This document shows positions 1,911 to 4,574 of a stretch of DNA of 4,574 nucleotides, piece after piece. The stretch lies in IMG/VR virus record IMGVR_UViG_2547132269_000010, one strand, 5' to 3'. The position numbers and the translations under genes are program-made. Positions within the stretch are counted from its first letter, which is position 1. Each line of letters starts with the position of its first letter. The DNA comes from a virus. Taxonomy: Duplodnaviria; Heunggongvirae; Uroviricota; Caudoviricetes. The notes under the pieces are model-generated. The model searched no databases, was not told the origin of the DNA, and saw nothing but the letters and a program-made list of their open reading frames with translations.

Positions 1911-1942
1911 AAAAAAGCCCGCGGAGCTTACGCCGTGCGGGC
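1911..1942 (-). terminator. putative rho-independent terminator (minus strand) between crr and the integrase region
   Basis: GC-rich hairpin GCCCGC(GG) at 1917-1924 pairing with (CC)GTGCGGGC at 1933-1942, flanked by A6 at 1911-1916 on the plus strand (a U6 tail after the hairpin on the minus-strand transcript). On the plus strand it is followed only by TCTT. Confidence 0.35.
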
Positions 1943-2146
1943 TCTTAGGACTTCATCGGATGACTCTGGTAATCACCGATGGAGAATTTTGGTGGGCTGG
2001 CGGAGTTTGAATAAATATTGTATTGCTTTGATTTTTAATGATTTTGTTTAATTCATTTTTTGTGCGTATACCTAATCGTATACCAATGGCTGGAAGTTAA
2101 TGTGAAATGAAAGCGCATTTTTACTTGGATTGATGCTATATCGTAC

Positions 2147-2270
2147 AGGAAAAAAATTTTTTTCGAAAGAACTGTTCACACTGTTCACCTTTCTGTTTTC
2201 TCCTTTTATTTCAGAGTGATAGGTGGTGAATAATGGGTGAAGGGTGAACATTCGATTCTTCACCTCCGGC
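2147..2270. repeat. crr-like cis-replication repeat unit 1 (iteron array)
   Basis: Begins with A7T7 (2150-2163). Contains TGTTCACA (2173-2180), TGTTCACC (2182-2189), GGTGAACA (2243-2250) and variants GGTGAATA, GGTGAAGG, TCTTCACC (2257-2264). Roughly 80-85% identical by eye to unit 2, offset 181 bp. Confidence 0.7.
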
Positions 2271-2276
2271 ATTCTG

Positions 2277-2326
2277 CCGGTGTGACTTGTGCAGGGGATT
2301 AATTTCCCGTGCTGAAATCACACCGG
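2277..2326. repeat. inverted repeat in the spacer between the two crr units
   Basis: CCGGTGTGA (2277-2285) and TCACACCGG (2318-2326) are perfect 9-bp inverted arms around a 32-nt spacer that contains a nested near-palindrome (GGGATTAATTTCCC). Confidence 0.4.
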
Positions 2327-2449
2327 AAGAAAAAAAGTTTTTTTTGATTTGATTGTTCACACTGTTCACCTTTCGTTTTTCTCTTTTAATTTCAGTGTGA
2401 TAACGGGTGAATATACGGTGAAGGGTGAACAGTGGATTGTTCACCTTCG
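2327..2449. repeat. crr-like cis-replication repeat unit 2 (iteron array)
   Basis: Begins with A7-G-T8 (2330-2345). Contains TGTTCACA (2354-2361), TGTTCACC (2363-2370 and 2438-2445), GGTGAACA (2424-2431) and variants. Direct repeat of unit 1. Confidence 0.7.
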
Positions 2450-2461
2450 GGGAATTCAGGG

Positions 2462-2488
2462 ATAAAAAAAGACCGGCAGATGCCGGTC
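2462..2488 (-). terminator. rho-independent terminator of the primase-helicase gene
   Basis: Perfect 7-bp GC-rich stem GACCGGC (2471-2477) / GCCGGTC (2482-2488) with 4-nt loop, followed on the minus-strand transcript by a U7 run (plus-strand A7 at 2464-2470); starts 16 nt after the TGA stop at 2505-2507. Confidence 0.65.
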
Positions 2489-2504: not shown

Positions 2505-4574
2505 TCAGGTTGTTGCAGGGTCGTCACATTTTGGCAGCCAGTCGCCGTAGCTTTCCTCTTTCAGCGTCAGGTTGGTCTGTATCCCCTGTTTGGTATGGCG
2601 CTTCTCGTAATTCAGTCCGTATTCCTTCAGCATCACCGGCAGCCCCAGCCCGAACATTTTCAGACTGAGTACATTCCGGTAGCCGTTTGCCTCCATGTAG
2701 GCCAGATAGGCGTGATAGAGGTATTTACGGTAATTACGCGGGATGATACTGGCGTTCCCCATATACATGCCGCTGGTCTGCGGCAGGGTTTCCAGATAGC
2801 CGATAAAATCAAACGTCGGGTCGGCATCCCGTTTGATGTTCAGTGCCTCGTCTGAGTTCTGCTGGGACTGAAGCAGTGACCGGGCGAGCATCGGGTCGCT
2901 GAACTTCTGCATCAGGTGACGCACGATGACCGCCAGCTCGCGGGTGATTTTGTCCTTAAGCTGCGGGTCGCGCTCCTGCGGGGCTATCTGTTCCGGGAAG
3001 TGAATAATCACCCGCCGGCGTGACACGCCGCCGCTGCGGTCGGTGAAGCGCATCGGGTTATTGTTCACGGCCAGAATCACCGCCGGGATATGCGTGGAGT
3101 ACGCATCCCGGTATTTCGGGTCAACGGACACCGCGTCGCCGCCGGTGATGGCCTTGAGTCCGGCACCGTCGCCGCTCCATTTTTCCTGGTCCGGCAGGCG
3201 TATCAGTGAGAAGCCAGTTAACGCGGCACGTTCACGCGGGGATTCCAGCGTCTCGATGGTGGCCGACGTGGCGTTATCCTCCCCGGCCAGCAGGGTGGCT
3301 ATTTCGGCCATGATACTTTTGCCGCTGCCGCCGGGACCGGTCACCTCCAGAAAGAGCTGCCAGTCGTAGCGGTTTGCCAGCACCATAAACAGTGCGGCCA
3401 GAATCACGTCGCGTTTTTCCGCACGACCACCGGCAGCACGGTCAAGCCAGCGCCAGAACGCGGGAGCGTGGGTTTCCAGCGTTTCACCGTCCACCGGCGG
3501 GGTGAAATCCACATCACACAGGGTACGCATCCAGTGTGACGGACTGTGCGGGTGGAACGTACCGTTCTGCGTGTCGAGCACGCCGTTACGAAAGCCAATC
3601 AGGCGGCGGGAGGGGGCTTCCTGCTGCGGAATAATCAGCTTCAGGGTGTCCACCACGGAGGCCACCTTCCCGGAGGAGAACGGCGCGCGCAGCCGCTGAA
3701 ACAGCCCGGCCACATCCCGGGCAAAGTCCTGTGGTGGCAGCACCTTCCAGACACCATTTTCATAGCGGGACAGAAGCTGGCCGTTGGCATCGACCGCGAG
3801 CGCCTCGCCGTAATGCTCATAGATACGCATGGCCTTTTCGCTGGTACTCATGGCGGAAAACTCCGCTTCGCTCATGGTGTCGAACGGGCTTTCAGCCGGT
3901 GGCCGGATTGCATCATAAATGGCCTTACGGGTGGCCTCCCCGCCGTACTGCGTGAAGGCATCATTCCAGTCACCGAAGACCGGCGGCAGGGCAACAACAC
4001 CTTCACACGCATCTGCGGCTGCGGCGGCTTTTTTCTGGCCGTCACCGCTGAGGTCACGGTCAGCGGCAAGGACAATCTGACAGGCGGGGGGCTTCTGCCG
4101 GGCAAGGCTGGCCAGAGAAAGGAGGTTCACGGAAGAAAGCGCCACCATCACCGTTTCACCGGTCAGGTGATGCACGGTAAGTGCGGTCGCGTATCCCTCC
4201 GCTATCCACAGACGTTTTCCGGCCTGATTCTGTCCTTCAAGGATGTGACAGGTGCCCCTGACCTGTCCGCCTTTCAGGGTGCGCTTACGGCCGTCAGCAC
4301 TGATTAACTGAAGGTTAACCAGTTCGCCGCTGTCGTCATACAGTGGCACCACAAGGTCACCGGCGCGCCAGCTCACGCCACCGGCTCTGTGTGTGCCGGT
4401 CAGCATCCGGCATTCCCGGCCGGGAAAGCCCTTGCGGGTCAGGTAGGCGTTACCGGTTCCGGGACGGGGTTTCGCCATCAGGGTTTGTGCCAGTGCGGCG
4501 GCGTTCTTCCGGGCGGCTTCTGTTTCAGCAACGGCGGCGGCCGTCACTGCCGGGTCAGCCGGTGGCAGGCTGGC
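2505..4574 (-). CDS. alpha: P4 alpha-type bifunctional primase-helicase (replication protein), 5'-partial; N-terminus beyond the window end
   Basis: Minus-strand frame is open from the window edge (no stop between 4574 and the first start-like codon, GTG at 4545-4547) to TGA at 2505-2507. Translation has TOPRIM-type primase motifs (WIAEGYATA with Glu codon at 4197-4199; AADRDLSGDG), a Walker A P-loop GPGGSGKS (3315-3338) and a C-terminal domain. It is followed by TGTTCACC iteron repeats, the known binding sites of the P4 alpha C-terminal domain. Confidence 0.9.
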   Translation of the reverse strand, partial: ASLPPADPAVTAAAVAETEAARKNAAALAQTLMAKPRPGTGNAYLTRKGFPGRECRMLTGTHRAGGVSWRAGDLVVPLYDDSGELVNLQLISADGRKRTLKGGQVRGTCHILEGQNQAGKRLWIAEGYATALTVHHLTGETVMVALSSVNLLSLASLARQKPPACQIVLAADRDLSGDGQKKAAAAADACEGVVALPPVFGDWNDAFTQYGGEATRKAIYDAIRPPAESPFDTMSEAEFSAMSTSEKAMRIYEHYGEALAVDANGQLLSRYENGVWKVLPPQDFARDVAGLFQRLRAPFSSGKVASVVDTLKLIIPQQEAPSRRLIGFRNGVLDTQNGTFHPHSPSHWMRTLCDVDFTPPVDGETLETHAPAFWRWLDRAAGGRAEKRDVILAALFMVLANRYDWQLFLEVTGPGGSGKSIMAEIATLLAGEDNATSATIETLESPRERAALTGFSLIRLPDQEKWSGDGAGLKAITGGDAVSVDPKYRDAYSTHIPAVILAVNNNPMRFTDRSGGVSRRRVIIHFPEQIAPQERDPQLKDKITRELAVIVRHLMQKFSDPMLARSLLQSQQNSDEALNIKRDADPTFDFIGYLETLPQTSGMYMGNASIIPRNYRKYLYHAYLAYMEANGYRNVLSLKMFGLGLPVMLKEYGLNYEKRHTKQGIQTNLTLKEESYGDWLPKCDDPATT

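Follow-up and report, generated by a model that had tools for sequence, protein, structure and literature searches.

A stretch of viral DNA of 4,574 nucleotides (the window, meaning the whole stretch) carries two diverged direct repeats beside a primase-helicase gene, and the question was what these repeats are and what part they may play in replication. The initial annotation had called them a crr-like replication enhancer, composed of two ~120-bp direct repeats 181 bp apart. Both the sequence and the name of crr date from work on phage P4 in the 1980s. A repeat search of the window returned a single direct-repeat family with units at 2147-2269 and 2328-2450. The unit length was 123 nt, and the two units were identical at 100 of 123 positions (81%). 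The two ~120-bp repeats were thus recovered, but the 181 nt proved to be the distance from start to start, and the gap between the units is 58 nt (~58-60 bp). As had been noted, an A/T tract heads each repeat. Read from the letters, it is A7T7 at 2150-2163 (AAAAAAATTTTTTT) in repeat 1 and A7-G-T8 at 2331-2346 (AAAAAAAGTTTTTTTT) in repeat 2. The features were found within 3 nt of the interval 2147-2449 that had been assigned to them. The GC content of the region was 40%, compared with 61% for the alpha gene.

The octamer TGTTCACC was then counted with at most one mismatch, and 14 matches were obtained across the whole window. In 200 dinucleotide shuffles of the window, the mean was 3.9 matches and the maximum was 8, so that none of the 200 reached 14. 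Ten of the 14 matches were located within 2173-2445, while about 0.26 would be expected by share of length in the 304 nt of 2147-2450. Each repeat contained five of them, at equal offsets and on both strands, with starts at 2173+, 2182+, 2225-, 2243- and 2257+ in repeat 1 and at 2354+, 2363+, 2406-, 2424- and 2438+ in repeat 2. The result was in agreement with the earlier description of octamer copies and variants in both orientations. The repeats and their sites, named after the P4 features, are as follows.

2150-2449, no strand assigned: crr, cis-required replication region, homologue of P4 X51522 4291-4590
2147-2269, no strand assigned: crr direct repeat 1, att-proximal and distal from alpha (direct-repeat search)
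2173-2180 (TGTTCACA) and 2182-2189 (TGTTCACC), plus strand: tandem type-I iterons of repeat 1 (octamer scan), equal to the P4 'ori type 1 repeat' features 4314-4321 and 4323-4330, respectively
2225-2232, minus strand: TATTCACC, site 1 of the repeat 1 cluster 2225-2264
2234-2241, minus strand: CTTCACCC, site 2 of the same cluster, an unannotated variant
2243-2250, minus strand: TGTTCACC, site 3 of the same cluster
2257-2264, plus strand: TCTTCACC, site 4 of the same cluster
2328-2450, no strand assigned: crr direct repeat 2, alpha-proximal (direct-repeat search)
2354-2361 (TGTTCACA) and 2363-2370 (TGTTCACC), plus strand: tandem type-I iterons of repeat 2 (octamer scan)
2406-2413, minus strand: TATTCACC, site 1 of the repeat 2 cluster 2406-2445
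2415-2422, minus strand: CTTCACCG, site 2 of the same cluster, a variant
2424-2431, minus strand: TGTTCACC, site 3 of the same cluster
2438-2445, plus strand: TGTTCACC, site 4 of the same cluster

The sites at 2243-2250 and 2257-2264 of repeat 1 also emerged from an inverted-repeat search as a 22-nt inverted pair. The iteron-like sites at 2234-2241 and 2415-2422, a sixth one in each repeat, have two mismatches to TGTTCACC and are unannotated in the P4 records. Two ORFs over the region (2072-2272 and 2211-2444, minus strand) were dismissed as mechanical reading frames across the iteron repeats. A promoter scan of 1780-2560 found no promoter, so the repeats are no obvious promoter region.

A sensitive blastn search with 2050-2520 against 50,697 phage records matched three bacteriophage P4 records only, with 94% identity across 2150-2498 of the window. 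In the matched stretch of the P4 record X51522, the label 'crr 120bp direct repeat' occurs twice and 'ori type 1 repeat' ten times, together with the t-alpha terminator and alpha, and X05623 ('alpha gene and cis replication region crr') is labelled likewise. The ten octamers labelled in P4 map one-to-one onto ten sites of the window. Over 301 nt of crr there were 15 differences from P4, 13 of them in the 58-nt spacer and one in each repeat, namely a lone A/T change at 2156 in repeat 1 and a lone extra A within the A-run of repeat 2. Like the P4 crr (X51522 4291-4590 / X05623), the region consists of two direct repeats of ~120 bp around a ~60-bp spacer, with five labelled type-I octamers per repeat at identical offsets, and it has the t-alpha terminator on one side and the att site on the other. 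Furthermore, the repeats are ~99% identical to those of P4, and the DNA-binding domain of the cognate alpha is identical. Unlike in P4, the spacer is 22% divergent (13/58) and holds a strong palindrome, the A-runs are one base longer, and the flank beyond crr is unrelated, with no P4 homology left of 2150 in the alignment with P4. The flank differs because the window's element uses ssrA as its attachment site and P4 uses leuX.

With high confidence, the region can be assigned as the crr of an ssrA-integrated prophage, a P4-like satellite whose replication module is essentially that of phage P4. Nothing found contradicts the crr assignment. The element is already known and belongs to a common prophage family, and as a near-identical copy of the described P4 crr, which should be functionally identical to it, it is real but ordinary. 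The proposed match to crr was upheld by the alignment, and only the word enhancer falls somewhat short. The GenBank records X51522 and X05623 describe crr as 'cis required' for replication, and it counts as essential to DNA replication in a 2026 preprint on the engineering of P4. A literature search on the biochemistry of crr found nothing directly on the topic.

The elements adjoining crr on its two sides are listed below.

2505-4574, minus strand: alpha primase-helicase gene, residues ~89-777, with the 5' end outside the window
2529-2828, minus strand: C-terminal winged-helix origin-binding domain of alpha, with 100 of 100 residues equal to PDB 1KA8 chain A
2461-2488, minus strand: t-alpha, rho-independent terminator of the alpha operon, with its hairpin at 2471-2488 (terminator scan; P4 label)
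~1991-2010, minus strand: probable attR core, with a degenerate ssrA (tmRNA) 3' end, from alignment with the E. coli ssrA-int region

The alpha ORF shared 99% identity with P4 alpha over residues 90-776 and contained the Pfam domains Toprim_3, D5_N, DUF5906 and Pox_D5. Its DNA diverged from that of P4 by 1.9%. The origin-binding winged-helix domain of P4 has been crystallised (PDB 1KA8), and alpha binds the origin repeats through this domain (PMC4234260; PMC2777425). Binding of alpha to the crr repeats of the window can very safely be expected, because the identical reader domain adjoins identical sites. The terminator consists of GACCGGCATCTGCCGGTC followed by TTTTTTT. The placement of the repeats just downstream of the primase-helicase gene was confirmed, as they start 55 nt past the stop codon with the terminator in between. 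The order of the alpha stop (2505), the terminator (2471-2488), crr (2150-2449) and the att core (~1991-2010) was the same as in P4.

The alpha-crr block matched 1,926 of 5,426 complete E. coli genomes, as part of P4-like prophages. The homology of many of these prophages ends at window position 1988, and 1625-2000 is matched in E. coli strains by the ssrA 3' end together with the beginning of an integrase. The degenerate ssrA copy at ~1991-2010 places crr ~140 nt inside the attR end of an ssrA-integrated satellite, and the probable attR core marks the end of the satellite. A P4-family integrase remnant at 1597-1785 was cut to 62 codons, and the homology breaks at ~1624. Together, the features between 1597 and 2010 are what is left of an older island that lies in tandem with the satellite. 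A terminator hairpin lies downstream of ssrA at 1915-1946 on the minus strand. At 1911-1967 (minus strand), a partial Rfam match to the IsrM sRNA reached 23.9 bits under a permissive threshold, compared with a gathering score of 376. This match corresponds to the terminator hairpin, and IsrM itself is almost certainly not present. No tRNA or tmRNA was detected in the window by ARAGORN. For annotation, the replication module of the prophage is now fixed as alpha, t-alpha, crr and attR at ssrA. P4-like satellites reach past alpha to crr and att, which gene-based delimitation schemes can miss.

The conservation of the repeats was studied in a survey of relatives, in which one genome per species was scanned and 75 loci with alpha 62-99% identical were obtained. 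Column conservation was calculated from 14 relatives with two adjacent units and a C-terminal alpha identity of 75-93%, with the window as the reference. The fraction identical to the window in these 14 relatives was 0.94 for the labelled iteron columns, 0.92 for the sixth iteron-like site (CTTCACC[CG], 2234-2241 and 2415-2422), 0.87 for the terminator columns, 0.83 for the A/T tract columns, 0.61 for the other repeat columns and 0.34 for the spacer columns. Iteron columns differed from the other repeat columns with a Mann-Whitney p of 9e-12, uncorrected for phylogeny. The iteron columns are thus under selective conservation in the relatives. In the survey, constraint fell on the A/T tract and on six TTCACC-core sites in each repeat; the spacer, the unit number and the distance to alpha were free to vary. 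This comparative baseline is useful for engineering minimal P4 replicons or cosmids. Six records of the survey (L006, L007, L008, L009, L074 and L077), mostly on short contigs, carried an alpha 85-99% identical to that of the window under the labels of Ferruginibacter, Clostridiales, Ruminococcus and Dysgonomonas MAGs or a Vagococcus isolate. Such an enterobacterial alpha is probably the result of binning or assembly contamination.

The number of crr units varied. Among 73 scorable related loci, two adjacent units were present in ~17 and a single unit in ~27. Loci L008, L010 and L015 are examples of the single-unit form. In L084 (11687-11808), a clean 181-bp deletion was observed in comparison with the near-identical L082, L083 and L085, and one hybrid unit remained, which looks like recombination between the repeats. 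The many single-unit relatives and the loss of one unit in L084 indicate that the two-repeat form is not obligatory. In addition, low-GC cargo of 0.7-3.1 kb was inserted between t-alpha and crr in 12 loci (L013, L030, L034, L036, L037, L039, L055, L058, L063, L064, L077 and L078) and between two crr units in three (L033, L041 and L070). The cargo products included an AriA/OLD-like AAA_15 ATPase, an Mrr-type nuclease (Mrr_cat), PIN_12 together with DUF3800, an FRG protein and a DUF4431 protein. A minor 'primase-att' defence hotspot has already been reported in P4-like satellites (PMC13586616), and the crr-adjacent cargo fits this hotspot.

The spacer is the most divergent part of crr, and its feature is given here.

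2270-2327, no strand assigned: variable spacer, with a 27-nt imperfect palindrome (arms 2272-2298 and 2305-2331)

The spacer was 22% divergent from P4, compared with ~98-99% identity of the surrounding region. Folded as DNA, the spacer hairpin of the window had a free energy of -17 kcal/mol and a z of -4.9, compared with a z of -1.4 for the P4 spacer and of ~0 for other relatives. Both spacer types circulate in E. coli, the window type in 172 genomes and the P4 type in 190. The divergence, the palindrome and the cargo between units in some relatives together imply that the spacer could be functional. It might serve as a recombination or insertion point, or as a lineage-specific protein or cruciform site modulating replication, with crr bounding the 'primase-att' cargo hotspot. 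This reading is unlikely. As a conserved structure the hairpin was rejected, since P4 and other relatives fold non-significantly and the changes relative to P4 do not compensate one another. Folding and comparison with P4 and relatives provided no evidence for a functional role of the palindrome.

The initial annotation also predicted that the true origin, with the same iterons, would lie elsewhere on the element. In P4, the rep_origin is labelled at 9086-9809, with six type-1 repeats at 9310-9413. The locus L086 (CP030787.2), which was found by an exact-protein match of a methyltransferase and is 99.8% identical to the entire window, contained six exact copies of TGTTCACC at 16523-16626, between alpA and sid and ~4.7 kb from its crr. 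The E. coli relatives L003 and L004 possessed an origin with six type-1 repeats, as in P4. The prediction of a separate origin was therefore confirmed by L086 together with P4, L003 and L004. Like crr, the P4 ori (ori1, X51522 9086-9809) has TGTTCACC type-I iterons recognised by alpha, six in number and in both orientations. Unlike crr, it is ~4.7 kb away between ORF88/alpA and sid, outside the window, and it has type-2 decamer repeats. Moreover, its iterons are all exact, with 10-11 bp spacing and without the 120-bp duplication. The P4 ori is the labelled replication start site, whereas crr is an auxiliary cis site.

The iteron variants of ori and crr co-varied across 33 elements, with a rho of 0.54 for G at position 2 and of 0.75 for T at position 8, the phylogeny being uncorrected in these statistics as in those on conservation. 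Such co-variation was as predicted by a shared reader protein. An exception was found in L044 and L080 (Erwinia/Pantoea), where the crr octamers were T[GC]TACACC and the ori octamers had the TTCACC core. This mismatch does not fit simple co-recognition. In these two loci, the crr-like unit falls within the 200 nt that follow alpha, and its octamers are TGTACACC and TCTACACC.

The following mechanism is proposed. After excision or derepression, alpha would bind the type-I iterons of ori and crr through its C-terminal winged helix. The alpha-loaded ori and crr would then be joined in cis by DNA looping. Alpha, an SF3 helicase with a DnaG-type primase, would next open and prime the DNA at ori, and replication from ori would run bidirectionally. 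In this scheme crr would not be a start site, and a replicon without crr in cis would fail to fire. The A/T tract and the T-rich 35-bp segment between the opposed iteron groups might, speculatively, contribute bendability or easy melting. These steps reportedly go back to the work of Flensburg and Calendar in 1987, Ziegelin and co-workers in 1993, Ziegelin and Lanka in 1995 and Yeo and co-workers in 2002. A comparable arrangement exists in R6K, in which the gamma-origin iterons enable the distant alpha and beta origins via initiator-mediated looping. Like crr, the iterons of the plasmids R6K, P1 (incA) and F (incC) form clusters that bind the initiator at a distance of kilobases from the start site and contact that site in cis via the initiator. 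These plasmids, however, have no sequence or protein homology to crr or alpha, and their initiators pi, RepA and RepE, unlike alpha, are not helicase-primases. In addition, P1 incA and F incC act negatively, whereas crr is positively required.

In one rival explanation, the iteron repeats are mainly a negative copy-number or titration locus, like the extra iteron sets incA of P1 and incC of F. They would sequester alpha, or pair with ori in an inhibitory manner ('handcuffing'), and would not activate initiation. Initiator-bound iterons outside the origin agree with this explanation, as does the natural variation between one and two units, which is expected of a tunable dosage element. It is nevertheless very improbable, because a requirement for replication would not be expected of a purely negative element, and both the GenBank wording of 'cis required' and the 2026 preprint's treatment of crr as essential speak against it. 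Moreover, it is the Cnr protein, through its action on alpha, to which copy-number control of P4 is attributed, and this also counts against a negative role of the repeats. The view of the region as an inert relic is less probable still. According to it, the prophage would be defective and the repeats kept only through recent insertion, since foreign low-GC DNA and a truncated piece of integrase (1597-1785) flank the element, and only part of alpha falls within the window. The truncated integrase, however, is part of the neighbouring older island beyond the attR core, and in the 99.8% identical L086 alpha is complete at 777 aa and alpA, ash, sid, delta and psu of the P4 core are present. Furthermore, relatives with a 62-93% identical alpha keep the iteron columns while the neighbouring columns decay, which indicates purifying selection on the family.

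Least probable of all is that the repeats are a second origin at which initiation takes place, or integrase/excision arm-type sites beside att. The repeats are AT-rich (40% GC against 61% in alpha), carry iterons and lie ~140 nt from the att core, all of which could suit either role. A second replicon of P4 is reportedly described by Tocchetti in 1998 and Magnoni in 2006, which would count in favour of a second origin. The P4 'ori2' (replicon II) is reported inside the alpha gene. Against initiation at the repeats, the labelled rep_origin of P4 is away from crr. Against arm sites, the labelled attP arm repeats of P4 are 12-mers that end at 4174, outside crr; crr is conserved between the leuX element of P4 and the ssrA element of the window, whereas the DNA from crr to att is not. 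In both cases, the cargo of relatives enters on the alpha side and leaves crr unchanged. Copy control, relic, second origin and att arm site each found little support, and the assignment of the region as the cis-required crr of a P4-like satellite is preferred.

The wider surroundings of the prophage were also compared. In L086, the genes identified were the 777-aa alpha, DUF5375/ORF106, ORF151, epsilon, ash, alpA, sid, delta and psu; the integrase falls outside the stretch of L086 examined. None of the RefSeq complete E. coli genomes covered more than 64% of the window, and 1-1624 was absent from the 5,426 RefSeq complete E. coli genomes. An N6/N4 DNA methyltransferase (PF01555) is encoded at 648-1328, in the low-GC DNA left of the island fragment. 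It abuts a Cys-rich ORF of 91 aa, in which several CxxC motifs but no Pfam match were found, and the two together span 373-1328, at 40% GC. The stop of the Cys-rich ORF overlaps the methyltransferase start in ATGA. In L081-L086, the methyltransferase region adjoins an island with EspG and a SPATE autotransporter.
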